Shown piece after piece: positions 15,403-45,414 of a stretch of 60,099 nucleotides of DNA (position 1 is the first letter of the stretch; the number at the start of each line of letters is the position of its first letter). The translations under genes were made by a program, and so were the position numbers. The DNA lies in contig CAYRIQ010000001.1 of NCBI GenBank assembly GCA_964424505.1, forward strand, positions 1 to 60,099, written 5' to 3'. The DNA comes from an uncultured Candidatus Peribacteria bacterium (GTDB lineage Bacteria; Patescibacteriota; Gracilibacteria; Absconditabacterales; Absconditicoccaceae). The notes under the pieces were generated by a model that saw only the letters and a list, made by a program, of their open reading frames with translations, searched no databases and had not been told where the DNA came from.

Positions 15403-15554
15403 AGCTGACATAAACACCCAAGACAGTAGGTTGCTCAAAGCATAAAATATCAATTCCTACCTAGGTTCACATACAGATATAATTTTTTGTATACGAGCCC
15501 TAAAAAGGTCTTTTTTGTTTTGAAAGCAATATTTAATTATTTAAGTTGTATAGT

Positions 15555-23722: not shown

Positions 23723-27541
<3,819 letters not shown>

Positions 27542-27707
27542 GTAAAGTACGTCTTGAAAAGAGTATCGAAATCGCTATACACAAGCCTACTGCATTGATA
27601 ATGAATAATACATGATGGATAATGTCAGGAAATTATGTACAATATAGCATCATTTATTACATTTTACTTTGCTTTTCATTTGTTTTAATCGTTAGTTATA
27701 GTATAAA

Positions 27708-27980
27708 ATGGCACACAAAAAAGCCGGTGGATCGGCAAAAAATCTGAGAGATTCAAAACCAAAGTATAGAGGCGTCAAGGTTTTTGGATGACAAAAAGCT
27801 GTTGCAGGAAATATTGTTATTAGACAAAAATGATCTAAATATGAATGTGGAAAAAATACTTATTTAGGGAGTGATTTTTCTGTTCATGCAAAAATTGATG
27901 GTACTGTCTCATTTAGCAAGAAAAAAATCGTTAGATTTGATGGTAGAAAATACCTTAAGACTATTGTAGATATCAAATAA
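27708..27980 (+). CDS. rpmA: Ribosomal protein L27
   Basis: [29 protein letters not shown]...IVIRQKGSK. Confidence 0.9.
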
Positions 27981-28053
27981 ACTTTGTTGCAAGTTAAAAC
28001 ATTAATATTTCAATCTTTCAACTTTTCAATATTTTAACATTCTAACTTTTTAA
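27981..28053. repeat. Periodic-word hairpin H4 3' of rpmA (TTTCAA/TTGAAA-type words, 8-nt period)
   Basis: atttcaatctttcaacttttcaatattttaacattctaac. TCAA recurs every 8 nt. Confidence 0.65.
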
Positions 28054-28056
28054 GTT

Positions 28057-28287
28057 ATGACAATCTGACCAAAAAAGAAAATTTCCCAATCACAAGGACG
28101 TAAAAGGCATTCTACATGGGAAAGACTAAATATTAAAAGAATGGTAGAAACTCACAAAATTTCTACTTGTAAAAATTGTGGTGCAAAAAAACTTTCGCAC
28201 AGAGTATGTCCAGTATGTTGATATTACAAAGGAAAACAAGTATTGACTATCAAAAGCAAAAGCAAAGATACAGTGGTAAACGCTTAA
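28057..28287 (+). CDS. rpmF: Ribosomal protein L32
   Basis: MTIGPKKKISQSQGRKRHSTW...[25 protein letters not shown]. Confidence 0.85.
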
Positions 28288-28292
28288 GAGCA

Positions 28293-28365
28293 TGCAAAAG
28301 TGGAAACATGGGAAAGTGGAAAAATTAAAAAATCTTTCAACCTTTCAATCTTTCAATGTTAGAAG
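28293..28365. repeat. Periodic-word hairpin H5 3' of rpmF (GTGGAAA words, then TTTCAAC words)
   Basis: aaagtggaaacatgggaaagtggaaaaattaaaaaatctttcaacctttcaatctttcaatg. Confidence 0.65.
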
Positions 28366-28392
28366 TTGGTCTTTAGTTTCTTAGTTTTCCAT

Positions 28393-28953
28393 ATGAATAT
28401 AAAAGCAAGAATCAATGCGAGAAAAATAGTACTTTCCTATTTATATCAGCATTGTTTTTTTGTTAATTTATTGTTGCAAGATAAAATGATTACCGAATCA
28501 TTGTTTATTGACTATATTTTTAAGACAGATGAAAATATGTATGATGAGGAAAAAGAAAAACTCAAAAAACAAATTGAAACTCATCTTGTTCTGTACACTA
28601 TAGAAGATTTCAAAAATTTTACTGATTGTTTTTTTGATGAACGAGCTGTAGAAGATATTGATTTTGATTACATCTCCAAGGTAGGCGTAAATTTTACTAA
28701 ATATATGGATGATATACAACAACAAGTAAATAGATATGCAAACACTTTTCAATATATCCAAATGGATCCGCTAGACCAAGCAATATTTCTTCTTGGGTAT
28801 ACAGAGTGGAAAGAAATGGAAACACCAAAAGAAGTATTACTCAATGAAATGATAGAACTTGCAAAAAGATACTCCGATGAAGGGGCACCTAAATTGCTCA
28901 ATGGTATCATGCACAAAATAATTGCAGCTGAAAGTCCAACGCTTGAAGCATAA
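28393..28953 (+). CDS. nusB: NusB-family transcription antitermination protein (long variant)
   Basis: ARINARKIVLSYLYQ at the N-terminus. The C-terminal part reads AIFLLGYTEW...ELAKRYSDEGAPKLLNGIMHKI. Confidence 0.65.
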   Translation: MNIKARINARKIVLSYLYQHCFFVNLLLQDKMITESLFIDYIFKTDENMYDEEKEKLKKQIETHLVLYTIEDFKNFTDCFFDERAVEDIDFDYISKVGVNFTKYMDDIQQQVNRYANTFQYIQMDPLDQAIFLLGYTEWKEMETPKEVLLNEMIELAKRYSDEGAPKLLNGIMHKIIAAESPTLEA

Positions 28954-28970
28954 AACAAAATATATATTGT

Positions 28971-29000
28971 AAAAGAATGGTTTCAAACCGTTCTTTTTTA
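28971..29000 (+). terminator. Rho-independent terminator after nusB
   Basis: gaatggtt-tca-aaccgttc stem plus a T-run. Confidence 0.65.
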
Positions 29001-29137
29001 TTTTGAAATTATGTAAAGATTTGAGAGAAATCGATGTGAAAGATTTTATCATTATCAATCAGATGATTGAGTCTATCAGTAAGCAACTAGTCGGTCGAGA
29101 AAAGTCAGTGAAATAATAAAGAAAGATCAGATAATTT

Positions 29138-32100
29138 TTATTTTGAATTGTTTCTACCAATAAAACTTTGAATTTCTGCCAGACTACTAAAATATCTTAC
29201 TTTCAAAAGTTTGTACGACATATATCACCTATCAGTTTTATAGATAATATATTCTTTCCCATTTGGCGCGATATATGATTGTGGCGAAAAATAAGTATCT
29301 ACCTCATGACTTCGAATCGCTTGAGGAATATTTTTACTGTCTATATACGTACGCAGTGTTGCAATACTAGTAAAATATTTAACAGTAGTAAATTCATTGG
29401 ATGTATATCATTGTCAGTTATAATATAGAGAATATACTTTTCCATTAGGCGCAATATGTTTGCTAGGATCTGTATTGGTAAATGACCATGAAGTAGTACT
29501 GTATGTATTTACATTTACATGACAGTCACCAGGATTTTTTGAGTCTATATATCTGATGAGACAATCACGATTTGCAAAATATGTCGCGATAGTAAAGTTT
29601 GGAGATGTGTATGCTAGTTTTAGATTGTCAAAACTAATACTATATTCCTTGCAATTGGGTGCAATATGTGCACTAGTATCGATGCTTCCATTTCATGTAT
29701 CATTACCTATTTCTCCATTAATAAGGTCTTCTAAATATTGAAGATTACAGTCATTGGTAAAATCAATTTCATCTGCCAACATACTTTTCATAGTAGAAAG
29801 GAATTCATCAAATTTATTTTCATCCTCACTATAATTTTCAACCAAACTATCAAAAATTATCTGAATAGATTCTTTGTCAGTATCTGATAAACTACATGCA
29901 TCATCTGTTTCTTGCTTGGTTTGTATACTAAATTCTAATAATCTATTGGCTATACGTAATGTAGAAGAAATAGTTTTGTTATATTTACTACTTGACCTCA
30001 TAGTAATATATATATCATCTCCATTTTGTACAAATGTACCAGTTCATATATCATTACCATTTTTATAAAGTGTTGCATCTCCCTCAAGAGTAGCCCAAAT
30101 ACTCACTCAATTTTTGAGAGTATCAATGGTAATTTCATTGGAATCATAATATGTTCTAAGATTAGCATCTTCTTTAGATACAAAATCTCGATCATCAAAT
30201 GTTCAAATCCTAAAATATCCTGTATTGCTTCGTATAGAGAGATTTCCCTCTTTATCTTTAGCTTGCATTCTCCAGTAATATTTTCAATCAGAAACATCAA
30301 AATCAGTACTTGGTGATCCAAAAGTTCCTGTTGTAGTAACTATAAATCCTGTATGTATAGTATCTACAAATGTATTGTCTGTAGCAATTTCATAAAAATA
30401 TCATCCGATTCATGATCCAGTATCTACACTTGCATTCCATTCAAACCTAGTAAAAAATATTTCTTCTCAACTAAGTGGATAAGTGATCACAGGAGTAGTC
30501 GGTGGTATATTGTCAGATCATTTAGTCGTTATCGTAAATATACCAGTTCCTAGTCAGATAGTCACATATCAAGTAATAGTCTGTAAATATCCTGAGCTAC
30601 TTTGTGTAAGTGTTTTTAGTTGATTGCCATTATATACAAGTAATCATGTTGTTCATGAAGAGGTGCAGACAGAACCAGAATATATTTCCAACCATCCAGA
30701 AGTAGTATTTGGAGTAAAGGTAATAGATGCCAATACTCAAGTCTCTATACCATTAACAGTAATAGTATTGCCAGTCAAAATGCCAAGAGGCACATTAGTA
30801 AGAGCAGCAAATAGTAAAGAACCAGTTGTAGGTGTTTGAGAGTATCATCTTGTTGTTACTATAAAAGGATTTATAAGAGATGATCATATTGATATGTTCC
30901 CAGTTATAGTCTGATTATAGCCTGTTCTAGTAAGTATATATATTTGTAGAGTATCTCAATTATTTACTATTCCTGTAAGTCCTATAGCATGTCAACTAAT
31001 AATAAGATATCCTGATGTAGTGATTGGATCAAAACTTAAGGTCACAGGTACAGGAATATTAAGTACACTAGCAGTGTATATATTTGTAGTATATCAGGTG
31101 TTTAACTGTGTTCATCAGCTTCCCAAAAAAGACACTCATTCAGGTGTACTATCTCGGATAGCAAACACTTCTGCAATATACTTGCTTGCATCATATTGTC
31201 AGGGAATTTGTATAAGAGACCCATCGGTTTCATATGCATAAGGAATTTTTTGTTTGTACATATGCAATCAAAATGCATAATTGACAGAAGTATTTCCAAG
31301 GAGTGATTGGAAAGTAGGCACCATACCTATTGTTGTACAATTACTATTAAGTAGAGTAGTTGTACTACCAGAAAGTGTAGGATTTGTAGCATATAAGCAT
31401 GATATGAGATTGCTTCCCGTAGACAAAATACCTCCATAAGGAAAAATGCCAGCCATACCTACAGATAAATATGTATCATTACCGTTGGTTCAATTAAAAT
31501 GCTCTCAATTGTCAAATAATTGTAACTCTCAATAATATGTATTTCCTATAGAACTATAAAGACTCGCAATACCAACAGTATTATTGTATAGTCTTATGTC
31601 ATTAAATATATTTCCAGAAGAGTTTTTAAGTGAAATACCTGCAGTGCTGTTATTATATAGAGCAACCCTATTAAAAACATTTTCTTGTGTAGTGAGATCT
31701 CAAAATATACCTATAGCATTATTATATCATTGCACATTATTTATAGTGTTTCTTTTTGAACCATTAGCAAACCAGATTCCGTAAGAGCCATTATTGTACG
31801 TTTGTGTATTGTTAATTACATTATAATTAGAAGTATAGTATAGATGAATACCAGCTGTAGAATTATTAAATGTTTGGCTATTTATTATAGTATTGTGATG
31901 TGACCCCAGTCCAAGAAAAATTCCATATCAGAGTGTATTGTATACTTGCACATTATTAATAGTAGAATTATTGTTGGCTCCATCAAAAAAAATTCATTTA
32001 CGTATTGCTGGAGAATATGCTACTGCATGATAATACAATCCATCTATACTAAGTGTATCAAGTATTATATTGCGTTTATTGTAAGCATACAATAAGCTGT

Positions 32101-33745
32101 TCATCCCTCATAATCATGTTTTATCAAATTTTGTATTTGAAGTTCCTATAAGGGCAATACAATTCCCATTAAAAATAAATCCAGTACTCGTGCCAGCTAG
32201 AGCTGATCTATATTCACCATCAGAAAGTATATATAGTGTGTGATCTTCAAATAGATAAGGAGACGTAAAATCTCCAGGAGCTAGTGTTTTTACTTGAAAT
32301 GCAGAAAGTGAACATCAATTGGTTTGCCAATTTTGAGTAAATATCGAGCCAGATCCAAAATAATGATTAACAAGTAATTGTTGTTCAGAGGATAAACTAG
32401 ATTCTGGTTCAGTAATATATTTTGTGGTAGTATAATCAGCTACATCTGTGCCATATGTTTCGAGAACATCGTCATTATACCAAACAGGAGCTACTTGTTT
32501 GCTAATATTCCCTCAAAAAATATATCTGATCGGGATTTGCGTATAATCAAATGATGATTGTATTCCTCTCAATATGCTTAGATTGACTCCACTCAATAAC
32601 CACTGTCCATTTCCATTTTGTGGATTAGTCACCCAGTCATAAGAAAATCATGTATATATTTCATTTAAAACTCCAGCTTCTCGATCAAGCAAAGACAAAG
32701 ATCAGGGAATAGCGCTCTGTGTTCATCAGGTAGCTATAGTATTGGCAAATAGTTGAAAATATCCATAAGATGAAACTCATCCACTATAGATAACAATTCA
32801 CTGATTATTATTGTAAATTTTTACATCATGAAAGTATCAAGATATTCATTCCGCGACAATTCATGCACTATTATTGTATGAAAGTGAGTTATGTATTGCT
32901 ATTTTTCATGATGGTAAACCTTCTGTTTTTAGATGCAATCATGTGGTATTATTAAATGTTTGTGTGTTATTTATTGTTATGTAGTTTGCATTATATGCAT
33001 CTATTCCGATAGCATTATTAAATGCTAAGGAATTATTAATATTGATATGTGAAGATTGGTCGCTGATGTTGATTCAGATATTATTTTTAAAAAAATATGA
33101 ATTATTTATAGCTAGACCTGTTGTATTTGATATATACATTCAATTATTCATATTGTTGTAACTTTTAATATTATTTAAGGAAATATTTTGTGCGTCTTGT
33201 AAAAATATACCACCAGGAATATTGTTTTTCCCATTAATAAGGATATTATCTAAGATAATATTGTTTTTGGATGTTACAATAATGTTTGATCATAAAACAT
33301 TAGTTTTTATGACAACATTGCCTTTTCCAAGAAGTGCTGAACAACTGTCCATACTGATAGGTGTAGTAAGTGTATAAGTTCAAGCATTGAGTATATATAT
33401 AGTATGTTCTGATAAAGATCATCAAGTATATCAAGAAGGAAGTGTGCGTATAGTGGTTGCTACACAACTTGTATCCCACAATCTTGTGTATGCAGTAGCT
33501 CACGGGGTTCCATCGCCAAATAAGGTATACATAATATTTTCATTAGTAGGATTTTGTTCCCAAAAATCATACGTAATAAATCCTCACCATTGCCAGTTTG
33601 CAGAAGTAATTGTCAAAATATTAGAAGCACCCCAAAGCATTCACAAAATCGATAATCCAAAAATACCAAACGCATGATGTATTTTTTTGTGAAAATAATC
33701 GAAAAGTCATTCTGGATGTTTAAGATGATGGAGTGGTGACTTCAT
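29138..33745 (-). CDS. Giant secreted/surface protein (about 1535 aa): N-terminal TM anchor, two parallel beta-helix (PbH1/NosD-like) blocks, Ig/FN3-like domains, C-terminal triple-repeat module
   Basis: I scanned every codon of this frame from 33745 to 29138 and found no TAA/TAG. Dozens of TGA codons are read as Gly. It contains N-N-x-x-G-I-type 22-aa repeats (NNIKSYNNMNNGMYISNTTGLAINNS...). Track ORFs 29693-30001 and 31268-31456 are in this frame. Confidence 0.8.
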
Positions 33746-33797
33746 AACTAAATGTTAAGTGTTAAATACTAAGGTAGCTATAGGACATCGATAGGGT

Positions 33798-36467
33798 TTA
33801 TCGTTTGCTTGGATTGTTCTTGTTTATATGGGTCTTAAGTTCTGAAAGTGTAATATAGTAGCGTACTTTCAAAAGTTTATACGACATATATCATCTATCT
33901 GTTTTATATATTTTGTATTCTTTCCCATTTGGTGCAGCATAAACAATAGGAGTAAAACTATCATCAATACTATGTTTCCATATTTCTTTCGATGGATTTC
34001 TAAGGTCTATAAACCTTTTTATATTTGCTAGAGAATCAAAATATTTTGGACTAGTAAATTCTGTAGCAGAAAACCCACCATACTGCCCGATAAGATGATA
34101 TATTTTCCCATTTGGTGCAATATGTTTCATAGAATCTAATAGATCAGAAGTTCGGAAATTATTACTATACGTATTGATATGACAATCTCCTGGATTATAA
34201 TAATCAATATGCCTAATAAGTGATTCGCGATTTATAAAGTAATATCTATTACTCATTTCAGGAGCATAATATGCTTGTTGAGTAGTGTCATATCATATAC
34301 TGTATTCTTTACAACTTGGAGCAATATGATTGCTGGTATCAACGCCTTCATTATCAAAATCATCTGCTATAAGATCGAGTAGATAATTTAGAGTACAACT
34401 ATTATTAAGTTCTGTTTCATCTTCTACCATATTCTGAAATGTAGTAAGAAAATCAGCATATTTTGAGATATCATTGTTGTATTCATCTTTAAGCTCTTGA
34501 TAAATATCATCAATAATACTTTTTTCTGATGTACTGAGTGTACATGAACTTTTTTTTGTACTTACAGAAAATGTGCCTGTATGTCCAAGTATGCGAATTT
34601 CAGAAGTTACCGTAGTATCATAAGTATTACTTGAAATAAGTTCTATATATACAGTATCTGAGGGAGAAACTAAACCTGTTGTCCCATTGCCTCAAGAGTT
34701 ATTGTTGATGAAAAGCATTCATTTTGAAATAGAAATCAACGTAGGTCAAGTAAGTCCAAATATAATAATAGGATCAGATTTATATATTTTATTGAGGTCT
34801 ACATTTCTCAACCAAAGTGTAGGTGTAGCAAAGAGTATACCAGTCCCACCACTACAATATTGTGAAGAAGTAGTAAAACTAACCATGGTTCACGAAGAAG
34901 TATTTCATAGATAATCTATAGCTGATATCCTCATATAATGAGTTCATAACGGAAGTAGAGAAGTACTTAGTTGAATAGCTGTTGTTGTATTTGGTAAAGT
35001 TCCACTTAAAAGATTTCCCGTTACCATACCCGTATTATTATATATGTCATATCTATAATGGCTAAGTCAAGCACCACTATCACTAGCACCACTTCGAGTA
35101 ACAGTAAGAGGTAATGATGGACAAGTGAATATATTGTTAACTGGAGTTATAATGGATGGTAAAGTCGGTGGAGTAGTATCTACATATACTCTTTTGGTGG
35201 TTCAAGTATAGGTACAAGTCCCTGTTGTATAACGGTGAGAAAAATAATTCCATCCATTTGTAGTAAGCAAGGTAACAGGAGTAATTATTCATGTCGTTAT
35301 ATAATTGCCCGATAGTGGCTGTTGGATGAAATCACCAGAAATATAAAAATGTGTAGGGTTACTAGCCAATAATTGTAACATAGTTCCTGTTGTATTGGTA
35401 TAATAACCAAAAGAATTTGATATGACAGTATTGCCTGGTGATGAAGTAAACGTAATGTCTCCTTGAAAATTTGGGACACATCATGTCGATTGAGGAATGG
35501 TTCCTGTTTGTACAGTGCCAGTCGATCATACATGAAAAGGTATTTGTGAACCACATTGAGGACCTCTACCATCAGATCACAATACCGTACATGTTGCAAA
35601 ATAATCTCATGAAATTAAGGAATTACCTGTAGCTCGTAGTCCTCATACTGTTTGTTGAGATAGTAAAGGTGAAGTATCTCCGGAACGAATAATAGTAAGC
35701 AAATAGTTACTTGCATTTAGTCATTGACACAAAAATGTAATATTTTGTCATTGATCGATACGTAATGGAGATATTTCAAAATTTTGACACCAAGGAATAT
35801 TTACACTGAATTCAGCGATACCACCATTAGTATCAAATATAAATCATGAATGGACTTGTCAGGTAACGATTTGTAATGTATGTCCAAAACTAGCTCCACT
35901 GATAGTGTTTGTAGTAAAATTATATTGTACTCCAGCAATCATACGAAATGATTGATCTCATGAAATACTATGATCTATTTGACCATAAATATCATTAGTA
36001 TTTGGAGTATATCAGCTGACCCCTGTACAGTTTGTATAAAAACCTCACGTCATAGTTATATCAGTATATCCTCATCCATTGCCACGGAGTAAAGCAAGAT
36101 TCCCTGAATCCAAAGGCCAAATTCTTCGACCTCTTTGGTTATTGTAATAAATTCATTTCAAATGAGTGGAACAGCTTATAGCTTGTCCATTTATACTGAT
36201 AGGTTGAGACGGAGAAATTTGTTCTCATCCTTGCCAAAACAAAATTCCGACAAAATCATTTCCTCAAAATTTAAAATGTGCATTGGAATAATATCATGTG
36301 GTATTCAACCAAGGAAAGATTGTAGAAAGATCATTTTGAAAAGGAATAACCTCAGCATAAATAGATTTAAAAGTTGCGAAAAATACGACAAGAAATAAGA
36401 TCATTCACAAAAAAAGTTTAGCTAAGCGAGATATCTTGCGATTGCAAAGAAGAGATGTTTTGATCAT
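33798..36467 (-). CDS. Large secreted protein (about 889 aa) paralogous at its C-terminus to the downstream giant gene
   Basis: The frame was scanned codon by codon from 36467 to 33798 and contains no TAA/TAG. Signal-peptide-like LFLGMILFLVVFFATFKSIYA. Ig-like PPTLP...DSGAGLSHYRYDI. The C-terminus matches the 29138-29700 product. Alternative ATG at 36491. Confidence 0.8.
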
Positions 36468-36591
36468 AATATTGCGACAAGGAATAAACATAGTTCTCTA
36501 AGTATACTCTCAGCATATAAATAATCAAAAAAACACCATCTTGATAGCACAATCAGATTGACAGACCAAAAAATGTATGTATAGTAAACAA

Positions 36592-37965
36592 TTAAAGAGG
36601 GAAAATGGTATTGAAAAATTTAGGAATATGGGTCTCTTGTGTATAAAGAGTAAAAAGTTTATTTTCTAATATAAGAATTGTTTCTGGGGAAATAGTAGGC
36701 AATATCTCCTGTTTGAAAAAATCAATAATTGGTGGCAATGGAGAGCTGTTTTTTATTTTTTGATAATAAAGGTACATGGCATAAGTAACTTCTTCATTGG
36801 TTCCTACACATTCAAAGGGTTTTATCCCAGAAACACCCAATAATTCTTTATAGAGCGGGAGTAAGGTATTATTTTCATATAATTCGTGATCAAAGATAGT
36901 TTTTGTCATATCATCACTGAGAAATGGTCTGAGTATAGTATAAACAAAAGCACATTTTGGACAAATACCACACCAGCGATTATGAGTGGTTTTGTTGTGT
37001 TCTATGACTTTAAAATTGTTGTTGCAACTGCTAAAAACACTAAAATATTGTGGATATTGAGCAAAAAGTTTGGCTATATAAATCTCATACATACCTCTTA
37101 ATAAACTAAAATATTTAATATCAGGGGAAATATATTTTTTGATATAATCAGAAAAATCTGACTCAAATTCAGCACTTTTGCTTCGTTGATGGTTGATGTC
37201 ATATTGTTTTCCTGTTTTTTCATCTGATAAGAGTATATTGCCTTCATTTGCACTTTTTTCATTGGACATAATGATATACGTATAATCATAGAGGTAGGCA
37301 GCAGTAGTAAGTACAAATGCAATAATTCAACTGATAGGTACATGTCCATTATAATATCATTGTTGATTCATAACGAAAAGTTGCGGATCAAAGGTTCTTT
37401 GTATTACTAGTCTTGGTGCTCATATACTATCACCAACCACACTATGAAGATAATAATCTTTGCCAAAGGTAGAAGTAAAAAAAGGTATTCCCATTTTTTT
37501 GATAAGTTCTACGCTTACTAAGCTATCTTTACCTCATCAGAGAGCAATCATAGGAACATTTCCTGATGATAAAAATATTTTTTGATGCTTTTTTTTAGCT
37601 CCATTTACAAAATGTAAGAGTCCATAAGGAGAAATACCATTTTTATAAAAAAACTCTCCAAGTCCCTGCATATAAAATTTTGTCCGAAATCTTTGCTGGT
37701 CTACGTCAAGTGACCCAGTTTCTACCACGAGATTTGTAGTAGGGTATACTTTATAATAGCTGATTCCAACTGCTAAAGAAAGATGAAAGAGGAGGGTATC
37801 CATTATTTCATCATCAATATTTGCTGTTTGGATAAACCCATGACAAGAAAAATCAATAATTTCTGTAAAATACGTTTCATGATCAAATGAATAAGAAAAA
37901 GTAGCTTGTAAAGTATTTTTATCAAAAGTATATCAGACAAAATAGAAAGTATCAAAAGATTTCAT
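36592..37965 (-). CDS. murL: PP-loop (adenine nucleotide alpha-hydrolase-like) protein, candidate MurL-type UDP-MurNAc-L-Ala-L-Glu epimerase
   Basis: The frame has no TAA/TAG over 458 codons. PP-loop-like IALGGGKDS (two Gly are TGA). Cys cluster RWCGICPKCAFVY. Divergently adjacent to murD. The MurL assignment is an inference. Confidence 0.55.
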
Positions 37966-38098
37966 AGCATAAAAAAGGCAAATAAACTATCAAGTACCAT
38001 AGTCATTATTTGCAAAAAATCAAGTAATGCTGTTCTTTTCTTGCAATCTTTTAGCAAAAATATACACGTAAATGTATTCTATTTTATTTTTTCTATCT

Positions 38099-39445
38099 AT
38101 GAAAAACTTTGATCGATTTCACAACAAAAAAATAGCTATATTAGGCTATGGAAGAGAAGGAAAATCTACCTTACAGTTTCTTTTACATATTGGAGTTTTG
38201 CCTATCAATATAACAATTTTAGATTGAGCAAGCAATGCAGGGGATCTACAGGATTTTGGTGGTAAAAGTATATTTGGATCTACCTATCTCGATGATTTAT
38301 CCAAATTTGATAGTATTATAAAAACGCCAGGCATCTCACTATATCATCCCAAAATACTACCATATAAAGACAAAATAATGACACAAGCACAGATTTTTTT
38401 TGATTATTATCCATGAAAAATTATCGCTATTTCAGGTACTAAATGAAAATCTACTACATCGACTTTGACCTATGAGACACTCAAAAATGCTGGCAAAAAA
38501 GTAGAATTAATTGGAAATATAGGAAAACCTATGCTAGATTACCTTAATAGTAAGAATCTATCATCACAGGCAAGTGAATATGTAGTAGCTGAAATATCAA
38601 GTTATATGCTAGAAGATCTCCACAAAACCAATTATTTAAGTGTGTTGCTAAATATTTATGCAGATCATGGTGATTGGCATCAATGATTTGAAAATTATAA
38701 AGCTGCTAAGTTAAATATTTTACAAGGAAGCAAATATATGCTTCTCAGAGATGAAATATCACAACACTACAATATAGACGAAAAAAAAAATCCTGATCAA
38801 ATGCTTCATGTATTTTGATATCAATGAAAATATACCTATGCTCATGGAGATTTCTTCATCGATGGAAAAAAAATATTTGACGATCAAGGTATTCTTCTCA
38901 AATGAGAACACAATAGAATAAATATTTGTGCGGTACTTGGTATTTGTGATATAATGGGTATTGCACCTACGATACTCAAAAAAACATTAATAACTTTCAA
39001 ATGACTTCCCCATAGAATGGAATATCTATGAATATTTTGAAATATTCAATGGATAGACGATGCAATTTCTACAACTCCAGAAAGCACTATACAAGCTATC
39101 AAAACTTTTGGAAATGATATAGACACCATATTTTTAGGAGGAACCGATAGGGGATATGTGTTTGATACATTGATAGCAATTATCCGTAAATATAAGATCA
39201 GAAATATAGTACTTTTCCCAGATTCTGGTTCAAAAATTTTAGCTACATTACACCCATGAGCAACATCTAATATACGTATTTTTCAAACTTCTTCAATGAA
39301 AGAGGCCGTTACATTTGCTTATACATATACAAGGAGAGGAAAAATTTGTTTGCTTTCTACCGCATCTCCCAGTTATAGTATATGGAAAAACTTTGAGGAA
39401 AAAGGCAATTTTTTTAAACAATATATAGAGGAAATATCGAAGTAA
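38099..39445 (+). CDS. murD: UDP-N-acetylmuramoyl-L-alanine--glutamate ligase (MurD family)
   Basis: KKIAILGYGREGKS, IIAISGTKGKSTT (Gly=TGA), GNIGKP, NIYADHGDWH, GLPHRME, DDAISTTPES. One frame through many TGA codons. Confidence 0.9.
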
Positions 39446-39490: not shown

Positions 39491-40138
39491 ATGAAATATA
39501 TAATGGGCATATTTATGGTATCTATAGTAATGATAAATGTGAGTTTTGCTCATCAGCCAAGACTAGTTTTTCAAGCCCCTACAGGAGAGATTATTCACAT
39601 AGAAAATCCAGAAATATCACAAGCATTTTACGGGATATTGTCAGGACAGGAAGATAACTACCAAATAGTATCTGATACGGGATTTTTATTGTATGTTAGT
39701 CTTGTTGTGCCTGATATTTCATGAAGTATGACAGATTTTACGATAGATATCAATCAAGGTGATAGTCCATTAATCCCAAGGCTTGATGGAAAGTATTTTT
39801 CACGATCATGATTTTTTGAAAAATTTGCTTGAGATACATATCTTCAGTGACCAACACGAGAAAAACTTGTAGCTCCTGGTATATATACCATTAAAATTTC
39901 CAATCCCGAAAAAAAAGGGAAATATTCACTCGCTATAGGCAAAAAAGAAAGCTTTCCTTTCAATGAAATTATTCATACATACAAAGTTTTACCAGAACTC
40001 AAAATAGTGTTTTTTGAAAAACCATGGTACACAATTTTTCTAAATTATGTATGATGATTTTTTATAGCTATATTGCTTGTCATTGTAGTAATAATCTGGT
40101 GAATTATACACCGAATACAGCATAAAAAACAGAGATAA
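39491..40138 (+). CDS. Hypothetical secreted protein with a C-terminal TM anchor
   Basis: Signal peptide MGIFMVSIVMINVSFA, C-terminal FFIAILLVIVVIIWGII, joined through TGA codons. Confidence 0.6.
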
Positions 40139-43218: not shown

Positions 43219-45414
43219 TTATTGTGGCATTAAAAATCTTTTATTATAATAACTAATATTTTTCAAAAATCATTTAAACCATATAATATCCTCACTGATA
43301 ATTTTTTTCTTGATTTCATCATCACATTTTTCTCCACAAAATTTTGCTCGATTCATTTCTCAAATTTTTAGATAGTCTTTATTGTCATCAATTTCTATCC
43401 AATAGGTAATGATTTGATTAAAGTCAGCTTGGATATCATGGATTATACTGATCATTTTAGCATGATATTGTTCATCAATATGCAAAATATTTTCAATATA
43501 AAGTTGTATAAGAATTTCAATATGTTTAGCAGTAGTGTTTTGAAGATACGTCAAAAAAATCAATACACCAAAAATAGTTTCTCTAAGTGTAGAAAATATG
43601 CCCAAAATTACAAGATCAGAATAATCTTTTTGTAGGAGAAGACCATTGTCTCGCATTGCTCTAAAAAATTTTTTGCTGATCCAAAAATCTAGGTTGTATA
43701 TATTTTCTTTGATATGATAAATATCTTGTTCGGTTAGATTGTTTTTCAACGTAGATAAAAATCCTGTATCCACTAAATGTATAGAAATATCTTGATAGAC
43801 CATTTCGACAAATTGATCATCATGTATGCGTACCATGTCAGATATTTCCGACCCTATCAGTCATTTAAAAAGCTCAATAATCATTTTATTTTTTATATAA
43901 AGTCTTATATCTTTTGGATTTATATCCTGTAGGATAGTCGCAATAGCTGTTTCGTCAAAAGATTTTAAAAGACTTATATTTGAGTATACATCTTTAATAT
44001 TCGTTTTTTGAGGTAAGAGAAATTTTTGTTTTCCTGCCCTCACATTTTCTGCAGTATGTTTATAGAAAAAAACATTTTTGCCATACTGATAAAGAAGCCT
44101 ACCATAATAGGGTAGTGTATAATCTTTTTTGTCTAAATGATCTGAAATAGAAAAAGTATATTCGATAATTGGTTTTCTAAACAATCTAAGAAAAAATGTA
44201 TCTCATCTAGATAGTCGAGATCATCAGATCAAAGTAATATAAAAATTTAAAATTTTTTCCATAATTTTAGATTCTTTTTTGATTCTTTCTGGGATTTTGA
44301 AACTTTCTATATTTTCTACATTTTCACCGATAGAAGACATCAAATCATCAAGATCTTCTTGAATGGCTCATGGAGTACTATCTTGCTCTCTAAATACCGT
44401 GACAATATACTTTTGTACTCACTCAAAAAAGTTTTTTTTGAAATGTTTATAATCTGTAATATAGAGCAAAAAATTTTCTAGTTGAGTATCATCTTTATGA
44501 AAGCTCTTGATAAAACCATCAAGTATTTTTTTGTCGAACAGTTTTGCAATGATAGAATCTGTAATGAGAAACATATCAGCATCAATAAAAAGGTATCTCA
44601 AGAGAATATCCGCAGGGAGTATAGATTGCAATATTTTTGTTTCTATGGATGAAAAAAAAGTCTGATGAGTAAATTCTTGGTGATGTCAGATAAATTCTGC
44701 ATAAATTGTTTTTTCTTTACCTTTGAGCTCATCATAAAAAATCCAAGAATATATATCTTTGTCAGAAACCTGTGGATGTATAAATAGAGTATTAAAGTTT
44801 TTATATACAGCAAACAATAAAAAGAAAAGCTCTACTTGATTGAGTAGTGATTTTTTCAATTCTTTGATAATTGTGGGATCAATTTTTTTTCCTGTTTGTT
44901 GAAAAACAAAAGTATAAAAAGAAAAAACTATTTCTATAAACCAGTTATAATTTTTTTCTCTTTCTTGATAAGGAAATATTTTTATCCTTGCAAAAAAAAC
45001 AAAACTTAACAAAAAAACAGTATACAAAAAATTAAGATAATATTCTGGTGGATAATTTCTAAATACATCTTTGACATACAATGCTACCACGAGTGATAAG
45101 TGATTCGCAATATTAGCAGGAGAAAAAAATCTATAGCCATTGAGGTTGGCGGTAGCACAATAACTATAATACGTGTCAATGTCTTTTTGTTTAGTAGCAT
45201 TATTTTCTCCAAATCCAATTTTAAATTCGAACGGATCAAGCGTTACATCAAAAAGATTGAGTTTATAATTTTCTACAATTTTTCTATTAATTACTGAAAA
45301 AAATTCTTTCGTTGAAATAAACGAAATAAACATACTTGCAGGATTGATAGTTTGTGCAATTATTTCATCAGGAAATAACGATAGTAAAATTCTTTTAAAT
45401 AACTGCATATACAT
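43219..45414 (-). CDS. Hypothetical protein (731 aa), predicted mostly helical
   Basis: Four track ORFs (43360, 43861, 44419, 44686) are in one frame. I read the joins codon by codon and they contain only TGA. Ends at TAA 43219. Confidence 0.6.

Follow-up and report, generated by a model that had tools for sequence, protein, structure and literature searches.

A conserved murL-linked gene pair of code-25 Absconditabacteria encodes paralogous predicted envelope proteins with a common C-terminal module

We analysed a 60,099 bp stretch of DNA (31.6% GC; hereafter the window) from an uncultured Candidatus Peribacteria bacterium placed in the Absconditicoccaceae (GenBank assembly GCA_964424505.1, contig CAYRIQ010000001.1, positions 1 to 60,099), and in it two co-directional minus-strand genes of 889 and 1535 codons that follow a murL homologue; their products are here called the small and the large protein. 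Both frames are real, intact genes, read in a genetic code in which TGA specifies glycine, and the pair is core and syntenic across the order Absconditabacterales. The products are nearly certainly conserved exported envelope proteins. As judged by alignment, they are paralogues across their C-terminal 600 or so residues, and both end in a module found almost only in the Absconditabacteria (SR1) lineage. Paralogy and module go beyond an initial annotation of the window, which was made from the sequence alone.

Two code-25 genes in a fixed locus

On the minus strand, the large gene (29138-33745) comprises 1535 codons followed by a TAA/TAG stop, with 60 in-frame TGA codons, and the small gene (33798-36467) comprises 889 codons and a stop, counted from the start MIKTS, with 29. 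Re-inspection found no TAA or TAG inside either frame, together spanning 29138-36497, and the frames are open exactly as the initial annotation had described them. It had also held them to be invisible to standard-code searches for open reading frames (ORFs), and within these 7.3 kb the longest ORF under translation table 11 is indeed only 121 amino acids (aa) long. A second ATG at 36491, 24 nt upstream of the small gene, would lengthen its product by eight residues; orthologues begin with MIKT, favouring the ATG at 36467. Under table 11, 17% of the window is covered by stop-to-stop frames of 150 codons or more; with TGA read through, such frames, summed over the six reading frames, exceed the length of the window.

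When RpoC of the window is aligned with PDB 7l7b_D, TGA falls, in the alignment columns listed, mostly on Gly, in a few cases on Arg or Lys and never on Trp. Both genes of the pair were also aligned codon by codon with 11-13 orthologous loci. In the two alignments, TGA codons of the window stand opposite GGN in 168 and 238 cells, opposite TGA in 79 and 198, and opposite TGG in 0 and 6; pooled, 683 cells hold GGN or TGA and 6 hold TGG. The TGG codons of the window pair with TGG in the orthologues, and with TGA in 2 cells. Because TGA matches GGN or TGA and almost never TGG, the genetic code is code 25, with TGA encoding Gly, and not Trp as in code 4. No tRNA gene was found within the 60-kb window, so a tRNA-Gly(UCA) was not seen there.

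The best-named relatives of the pair are "candidate division SR1" and "Candidatus Absconditabacterales". Of the 39 full-length homologues of the small protein, one is the window's own copy, 36 are orthologues at 51-63% identity and two are distant sequences at 35-36%. For the large protein there are about 30 orthologues (48-60% identity), along with distant relatives of 1700-2200 aa at 30-37%. Neither gene contains tandem repeats at the DNA level. In public protein collections, both window proteins (P0001 and P0041) and most orthologues are translated with TGA as Trp, giving a Trp content of 3-5% against about 1% expected, and other entries for the family fall well short of full length, apparently through truncation. 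Only the NCBI entries P0002-P0004 resemble code-25 translations. Positions 27138-35745 of the window are also present on contig k141_249970 of ENA assembly ERZ27262927, with 2 mismatches in 8608 bp, which means that the population has been assembled at least twice.

Directly upstream and co-directional lies the murL homologue (36592-37965, minus strand), a gene that the initial annotation had identified correctly as murL-like. Residues 4-437 of its 457-aa product match NF041275 (E = 1e-98); at 331 bits, against an equivalog cut-off of 700, the score is what would be expected for a distant phylum, and orthologues carry PF26299/PF26298. The divergent gene beyond murL is murD (TIGR01087, 273 bits, passing the ordinary murD cut-off). 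Downstream of the pair, in convergent orientation, are nusB, rpmF, rpmA and rpoC/rpoB. The order g32-murD / murL-small-large / nusB-rpmA-rpoC recurs in about 20 independent Absconditabacterales genome loci. In these syntenic loci, identity to the window is 87-92% for RpoC, 75-86% for NusB, 66-71% for MurL and 60-63% for MurD, and for the pair itself 68-76% in the C-terminal module of the small protein, 47-58% in its N-terminal part and 46-62% in the N-terminal part of the large protein. The linkage extends to distant relatives: a small-like gene stays beside murL or murD even at 32-36% identity, following murL in lineage L002 (36% identity) and adjoining murD at locus L041, and a gene bearing the module still stands ahead of nusB in L031, L035, L036 and L038-L040.

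To estimate selection, the Nei-Gojobori method was applied to L019 and L021, the two most similar orthologues available. The ratio of nonsynonymous to synonymous substitution rates (dN/dS) is 0.02-0.11 along the whole length of the small gene, which has no variable region, and 0.01-0.11 in the large gene outside a variable cassette described below; both genes are under strong purifying selection. Since gene order is fixed in some 20 loci and purifying selection is strong, the pair is core and not, as the initial annotation had proposed, the main accessory content of the window. Comparison with related genomes, which it had suggested for presence and absence, found the pair conserved and syntenic, with one variable cassette (residues 51-500 of the large protein) and a differing number of Ig-like repeats. 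Its description of the proteins as giant was likewise an overstatement, RpoB and RpoC in the same window being 1225 and 1272 aa long.

Protein architecture and the C-terminal module

Residues 313-885 of the small protein align with residues 921-1533 of the large protein at 35% identity over 639 columns (E = 5e-85). From N- to C-terminus, the shared half runs through Ig-like domains, a single FN3-like domain and a further beta-sandwich into an acidic linker of three helices, and closes with three basic beta/alpha repeats of about 55 aa each; it is preceded by a string of beta-sandwiches in the small protein and by two cap-plus-beta-helix units in the large one. Each protein has exactly one hydrophobic segment, located at the N-terminus, where the initial annotation had placed an export or anchor sequence. 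Both proteins are rich in Cys (12-15 per protein), many of which are invariant across orthologues. Neither window protein has an LPXTG-like motif or a C-terminal hydrophobic (transmembrane) segment, and neither they nor their families contain an SLH domain (Pfam PF00395).

The linker and the three repeats make up the module of about 250 aa with which both proteins end. In the small protein, the linker occupies residues 636-710 (34338-34562; this and all further parts of the two proteins lie on the minus strand), as delimited by predicted helices and isoelectric point (pI), and the repeats, visible in the sequence and in the model, occupy residues 711-889 (33801-34337; pI 9.1). In the large protein the corresponding parts are residues 1276-1350 (29696-29920), assigned from the alignment and the pI of the family linker, and residues 1351-1535 (29141-29695; pI 8.97). 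The repeats follow the signature (H/Y)(I/A)APN(G/C)KxYxI...Y.S...(K/R)Y(F/Y).(S/T)L..(I/L)...I...NP and contain many invariant Asn, Lys and Tyr residues. An AlphaFold2 (AF2) model of the 254-aa module, made from the database copy of the window protein with two Trp-for-Gly substitutions (predicted local distance difference test score, pLDDT, 79; predicted template-modelling score 0.62), has helices at 11-26, 32-53 and 56-72, followed by three copies of three to four strands and a helix. The module has no significant match among Pfam and NCBIfam models; its AF2 model finds nothing significant with Foldseek in the PDB (best E = 1.8) or in BFVD (best E = 0.07), and its profile matches none of the PDB sequences, SLH structures included.

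The module is confined almost entirely to one lineage. An exhaustive hidden Markov model search of 1.84 billion representative proteins returned only 238 matches, and in a species-level genome set 39 loci were found, in metagenome-assembled genomes labelled SR1, Absconditabacterales, Absconditicoccaceae, Gracilibacteria, Peribacteria and, once, Arcobacter; the Peribacteria labels are probably automatic, and one of the 39 loci belongs to the complete genome RAAC1_SR1_1. Among the 144 matching proteins of at least 500 aa, the module ends within 10 aa of the C-terminus in 139, and 110 have an N-terminal hydrophobic segment. What stands in front of it varies (Beta_helix, LRR, DUF4215 or nothing recognisable). 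Over about 100 members, the triple repeats have a median pI of 8.8, with 82% above 7.5, the helical linker one of 4.05 and the passenger one of 4.85.

The module may also bear some resemblance to the aRib repeats (PF18938) of Gram-positive surface proteins. Its profile also picks up ten aRib repeats in one protein, and the two share the pattern "helix...NP...D...NGK.(F/Y).I", a helix ending in ...I..(A/N)NP being followed by D...V...NGK.(F/Y).I. The profile-profile match is, however, weak (hhalign probability 32% over 41 columns), and the Pfam aRib model matches neither window protein even at E <= 1. As a separate observation, two SR1 loci encode proteins of 671 aa (L001, 2523-4538) and 997 aa (L003, 1080-4073) with a match to Por_Secre_tail, the C-terminal sorting domain of the type IX secretion system. 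Unexpected in a single-membrane member of the Patescibacteria, these might represent a further device for sorting or anchoring at a protein terminus, or might have come by horizontal transfer.

The small protein begins with a Sec-type signal peptide (residues 1-38; 36354-36467), read from the sequence, with a basic K/R-rich n-region, a 16-aa hydrophobic core and, by inspection, a likely cleavage site ...SIYA|EV; orthologues retain ...LYA(D/E) at this position. Outside residues 251-300, no stretch of the protein is less conserved than this one, which has all the appearance of a textbook, classical signal peptide with an A-x-A-like site. The region that follows (residues 39-635; 34563-36353) contains conserved Cys, the protein having 15 in all, and has no Pfam or PDB sequence match among the 29 family members searched; nor does the protein as a whole match anything significantly in Pfam or NCBIfam, matches of the helical linker to DUF1759, CYP38 and SPACA7 (E > 0.004) being discarded as noise. 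A full-length AF2 model was made from the code-25 orthologue P0002 (pLDDT 67 overall, 70-88 within domains). It is all-beta over residues 59-655, forming about five sandwiches of seven to eight strands. Against the PDB, Foldseek gives 315 matches at E < 1e-3, down to E = 6e-11, and the best 50 of these are without exception tandem Ig/FN3/MG (macroglobulin-type) arrays. The matches include the bacterial surface proteins GhpA (9fls), MpIBP (5irb), SiiE (2yn5) and the S-layer protein Sap (9g93, E = 3e-8). A whole-chain Foldseek search gives generic Ig arrays only and yields no assignment for the N-terminal domain of about 170 aa.

Within this region, residues ~433-540 (34848-35171) form an FN3-like domain that opens with PPTLP, has 7-8 strands in the model and carries DSGAGLSHYRYDI at residue 463, about 25 aa past PPTLP. 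Its weak profile matches, to an OmpL47-type domain (E = 0.059) and to Sidekick-2 FN3 (E = 0.61), are below significance. The equivalent FN3-like domain of the large protein (residues 1081-1185; 30191-30505) opens with PPTTP and carries DTGSGIGGYFYEI at residue 1108, again about 25 aa on; the large-protein family profile reaches the FN3 domain of chitinase A1 (ChiA1, 1k85) at E = 0.03, also below significance. It is preceded by two Ig-like repeats of about 105 aa (residues 871-1080; 30506-31135), recognized by their internal similarity and homologous to part of the beta-sandwich region of the small protein, and followed by the last beta-sandwich ahead of the module (residues 1186-1275; 29921-30190), aligned with residues ~545-635 of the small protein, a beta-sandwich in the model. 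Orthologues of 1328 aa lack residues ~865-1077, that is, the two Ig-like repeats, which implies that stalk length varies. The PPTxP-initiated Ig/FN3-like domains and the shared D-(S/T)-G-(S/A)-G motif of the initial annotation can thus both be recovered: the motif occurs once per protein, and Ig/FN3-like beta-sandwich domains are predicted in both proteins, on the strength of the all-beta model and its structural matches, sequence matches being weak. Like the stalk adhesins MpIBP, SiiE and the Aureispira grappling-hook protein GhpA, the window proteins have tandem beta-sandwiches (Foldseek E 1e-8 to 3e-10) and orthologues that vary in the number of Ig-like repeats. They differ in being much shorter, with five or six domains instead of dozens, in lacking repeats-in-toxin and type I secretion signals, and in belonging to a single-membrane envelope; the likeness is at the generic fold level only.

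The large protein begins with a 24-aa His/Lys-rich tail and a hydrophobic segment of about 22 aa ending TSA|NW, which together form a signal peptide or signal anchor (residues 1-48; 33602-33745). Cleaved signal peptides are usually far less conserved than this stretch, whose mean identity is 61% and which reaches 96% between the two closest orthologues. In distant homologues, a short signal peptide of the classical kind ends directly before the same W motif. Because of the unusual conservation, a cleaved signal peptide and a retained signal anchor are indistinguishable here. Next come the two cap-plus-beta-helix units (~51-345 and 501-745). The first belongs to a fast-evolving cassette, delimited by identity and dN (residues 51-500; 32246-33595) and made up of an N-cap, beta-helix block 1 (~151-345) and a middle domain; the second cap and block 2 (residues 501-745; 31511-32245) form the best-conserved part of the protein. 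Twelve N-N-x-x-(x)-G-I/L motifs, spaced 21-26 aa apart, fall into two blocks at residues 174-312 and 603-721, in agreement with the two repeat blocks noticed initially. Pfam Beta_helix (PF13229) matches residues 584-736 with 53.3 bits against a cut-off of 25.9 (E = 3.2e-14) and is found in all 22 family members searched (best E = 6e-24). The protein contains right-handed parallel beta-helix blocks. The Pfam NosD model also scores above its cut-off (34.1 against 23.6 bits); an identity with this nitrous-oxide reductase maturation factor was rejected, the neighbours being murL, murD, nusB and rpoC and no nos genes lying nearby.

The two beta-helix blocks have evolved very differently. Against a mean of 58%, identity to orthologues is 34-36% in block 1 and 75-77% in block 2, where dN/dS is 0.01; over all 66 orthologue pairs, block 1 stands at 0.67 of overall identity and block 2 at 1.26. 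In the closest pair, which is 85% identical overall, residues 51-500 are only 56-74% identical, against 96% for the first 50 residues, 86-100% after residue 500 and 94-100% in the C-terminal half. In the cassette, dN is 0.20-0.38, compared with 0.01-0.07 elsewhere in the large gene, and dS is 1.2-2.4 (saturated), compared with 0.4-1.0. A search for positive selection in the cassette gave a dN/dS of 0.16-0.23, not above 1, with dS saturated. The cassette either diverges quickly or is swapped by recombination. The initial annotation had related the proteins, as adhesins, to a host-attached lifestyle; the sole hint of host binding comes from the sequence divergence of this N-terminal cassette.

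Proposed role at the cell envelope and its rivals

Export, wall tethering, orientation and ligand are all steps that we infer. Both proteins would be exported by the Sec route and displayed on a single-membrane, peptidoglycan-containing envelope. The basic triple repeat would hold them non-covalently on an anionic wall, either on peptidoglycan or on a wall polymer, as the functional counterpart of the SLH or CWB2 triplets, to which it is unrelated. The beta-sandwich domains would form a stalk, with the N-terminal part directed away from the cell and the variable beta-helix cassette as the exposed, ligand-facing end. The small protein would be a conserved structural component, and the cassette of the large protein would bind, and possibly process, a glycan, whether of a partner or prey cell or of the cell's own coat. 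Taken as a whole (Sec-exported envelope proteins, tethered through the C-terminal module with the N-terminal part outward), we consider this picture to be evenly balanced between right and wrong. For the module, an anchoring role is suggested because of its terminal position, triplication and charge and because no other anchor was seen; as a wall anchor it is a tentative candidate, at or slightly under an even chance. A further extension, in which the module would be an undescribed wall-anchoring domain confined to Patescibacteria with TGA as Gly and defining their displayed surface proteome, the pair beside murL would be the core of an attachment coat and the cassette would set partner or prey specificity, we regard as rather doubtful.

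A parallel to such an arrangement is provided by the SLH and CWB2 surface and S-layer proteins, such as Sap and EA1 of B. anthracis and the Cwp proteins of C. difficile. These also combine a signal peptide, a string of beta-sandwiches and a triplicated terminal module of about 55-60 aa per repeat; one terminal module is common to many proteins with different passengers, and the module is basic and the passenger acidic. The window module differs in having no sequence or fold similarity to them and in being C-terminal, after an acidic three-helix linker, and its wall binding is only proposed. The cells of Absconditabacteria are bounded by a single membrane, contain peptidoglycan and bear a thick fibrous coat, and many large surface proteins are predicted for them (PMC8080830, PMC13059738, PMC3812714); the proposed picture fits the coat and the large surface proteins of Vampirococcus, Strigamonas and RAAC1.

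Several points weigh against this picture. The module matches no fold significantly, as given above, nor any PDB sequence, and to judge from the sequence comparisons no known homologue ties it to a cell wall. In the close pair, the large protein shows such high conservation of its N-terminal tail and hydrophobic segment that this end may stay in the membrane, making a second anchor less necessary. Absconditicoccaceae relatives have been reported to possess SLH-domain proteins (PMC13059738), which means that the lineage already has a wall anchor. The AF2 models are of moderate confidence, and they represent an orthologue in one case and a chain with two Trp-for-Gly substitutions in the other. 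The linkage with murL and murD may reflect a general conservation of synteny in the region.

The same N-terminal conservation leads to a picture of reversed polarity, unlikely in our view, in which a type II N-terminal anchor would hold the large protein in the membrane and the triple repeat would be a distal lectin-like head, or a docking module joining the small protein to the large one or to another coat protein. Residues such as the invariant Asn, Lys and Tyr of the repeats often occur in sugar-binding sites, the module is present on both of two always adjacent paralogues, and its best non-significant Foldseek matches include three-fold beta-trefoil lectins (HA33 and a Photorhabdus lectin). 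These matches are, however, noise (E > 1, probability 0.01-0.4). The classical, poorly conserved signal peptide of the small protein, with its A-x-A-like site, and the short, ordinary signal peptides of the distant large-protein homologues also speak against this picture, and reversed polarity would place the fast-evolving cassette beside the membrane, which would be unusual for an exposed variable region.

If, instead, the small protein were the main structural component of the envelope, S-layer-like or sheath-like, the pair would be a housekeeping coat without partner recognition. We hold this to be unlikely. The small protein is uniformly conserved, occurs in every related genome examined, and in its succession of signal peptide, beta-sandwiches and triplicated terminal module parallels Sap of B. 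anthracis. Yet Foldseek matches to any tandem Ig array are equally good, and a variable cassette is present in the large partner. With 15 Cys, many of them conserved, the small protein also departs from classical S-layer proteins, in which Cys is usually rare or absent.

The beta-helix blocks raise the further question of enzymatic activity: the large protein could be a cell-surface polysaccharide-active enzyme (a lyase, epimerase or hydrolase of the beta-helix/CASH class) acting on the prey capsule or wall or on the cell's own coat, and not a passive adhesin. The nearest solved sequences to the family profile are the mannuronan C5-epimerases AlgE4 (2pyg, E = 4.6e-5), AlgE6 and AlgG, no part of the protein is better conserved than block 2, and SR1 genomes are said to encode surface 'pectin lyases' (PMC3812714). 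With AlgE4, AlgE6, AlgG and NosD, members of the CASH beta-helix proteins, the large protein shares matches to the Beta_helix and NosD models above cut-off, coils of 21-26 aa and Asn ladders. It differs from them in having no epimerase motif and no nos genes nearby, and in the duplication of the unit, one copy of which is fast-evolving. Membership of the epimerases was rejected: the catalytic YGFDPHE of AlgE4 stands opposite YGIYLGLSSHH in the family consensus, its Asp and His being absent, and because this motif is not kept the similarity is a relationship of fold and not evidence of epimerase activity. The invariant residues of block 2 belong mostly to the Asn ladder, which is structural, and neither the protein nor its family matches a pectate-lyase or glycoside-hydrolase family in Pfam or NCBIfam. 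We consider this explanation improbable. The reversed or docking, structural-coat and enzymatic explanations all remain live and are not mutually exclusive.

The last two explanations can be put aside. That the pair represents strain-variable, horizontally acquired adhesin genes would agree with large, exported proteins that have adhesin-type domains, one variable cassette and a varying number of Ig-like repeats; it is contradicted by a position and order that do not change among about 20 genomes with an RpoC 87-92% identical to that of the window, by a GC content resembling that of the remainder of the window, by orthologue identities (47-60%) close to those of MurD and by strong purifying selection, which makes it very improbable, and it was rejected. 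The idea that the frames are compositional artefacts of AT-rich sequence, which might be prompted by a TGA-tolerant open frame of 197 codons opposite the large gene (29960-30553, plus strand; in all likelihood a chance occurrence in AT-rich coding sequence, nothing having been found to mark it as a gene), has a negligible probability and was likewise rejected, given frames of 4.6 kb and 2.7 kb without TAA or TAG, dozens of full-length orthologues, the TGA/GGN codon correspondence, a dN/dS far below 1 and domain searches that placed Pfam Beta_helix above its cut-off.

Neighbouring features and significance

The gaps between murL and the small gene and between the small and large genes are 124 bp and 52 bp. 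A consensus scan found a weak sigma-70-like site in the former (TTGATT-16-TATACT, 9 of 12 matches; 36501-36528, minus strand) and a candidate bidirectional terminator (28971-28997), a GC-poor palindromic hairpin with A and T runs beside it that lies where nusB and the large gene converge at their 3' ends; such promoter-like and terminator-like sites are no commoner in the region than in shuffled sequences. The sole terminator-like hairpin near the pair follows the large gene, and co-transcription of the pair downstream of murL is plausible. The divergent murL/murD pair (36592-39445) is kept across SR1 loci together with g32, a 215-aa protein with a signal peptide or transmembrane segment (39491-40138). 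A route to peptidoglycan D-Glu by MurD2 and MurL, in which L-Glu is ligated and then epimerized, is known from Xanthomonas, and the conserved murL/murD pair suggests that this lineage uses it.

Several other features of the window and of related loci were noted. Between rpmA and nusB lies rpmF (L32, 48 aa; ~28130-28280, plus strand), whose frame 2 translation contains KNCGAKKLSHRVCPVCGYYKGK and which is also among the called genes of the near-identical contig (L046); an opposite-strand ORF at this site (28126-28356) was rejected as spurious. An Rfam L10_leader (RF00557; 15399-15525, plus strand; 49.5 bits against a gathering threshold of 44) precedes an rplJ-like gene at 15546 and is the only Rfam match within the window. 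The gene g37 (43219-45414, minus strand; 731 aa) always adjoins nrdR; its product has no Pfam match, and its counterparts in other SR1 genomes share 71-76% identity with it. In the case of P0071, a distant homologue of the large protein, short 'ORFs' of one repeated peptide (SSRVVIVARDLKELKKD.SQ.RALRNDN; L003, 4280-4651 and 10163-10372, and also in L004) stand on either side of its gene, so a DNA repeat brackets the gene; this may be a repeat array or the end of a mobile element.

Proteins of this kind are already known, orthologues of both genes being in GenBank as 'hypothetical protein' and large beta-helix/FN3 surface proteins having been noted in SR1 genomes since 2013. The large surface proteins of SR1 and other Patescibacteria (Vampirococcus lugosii, Strigamonas, RAAC1_SR1_1) belong to the same lineage and use the same genetic code as the window pair, and are also large and exported, with beta-helix ('pectin lyase fold'), FN3 and other adhesion-type domains. 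They are thought to build the fibrous coat and to contact the host, and have been listed by size and Pfam domain and discussed as variable and lineage-specific (PMC8080830, PMC13059738, PMC3812714); the window pair differs in being conserved across the order. In these three papers no description was found of the murL-linked pair, its paralogy or the shared C-terminal module, and these, together with the variable cassette, appear to be undescribed in the searchable literature.

Absconditabacteria are obligate epibionts or predators and nearly unculturable, and contact with partner cells is central to their biology. Entries with Trp for TGA, or split at TGA, degrade alignments and structure predictions lineage-wide and hide the family from routine annotation. 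Were the anchor idea wrong, an ordinary pair of conserved hypothetical envelope proteins would remain. As a conserved and syntenic unit, the pair offers a better entry point than the published lists of large hypothetical proteins. The C-terminal module, a candidate wall-anchoring domain without known relatives, would provide a simple sequence signature for extracting the displayed proteome from any code-25 genome, and the variable cassette of the large protein could be compared with host range.

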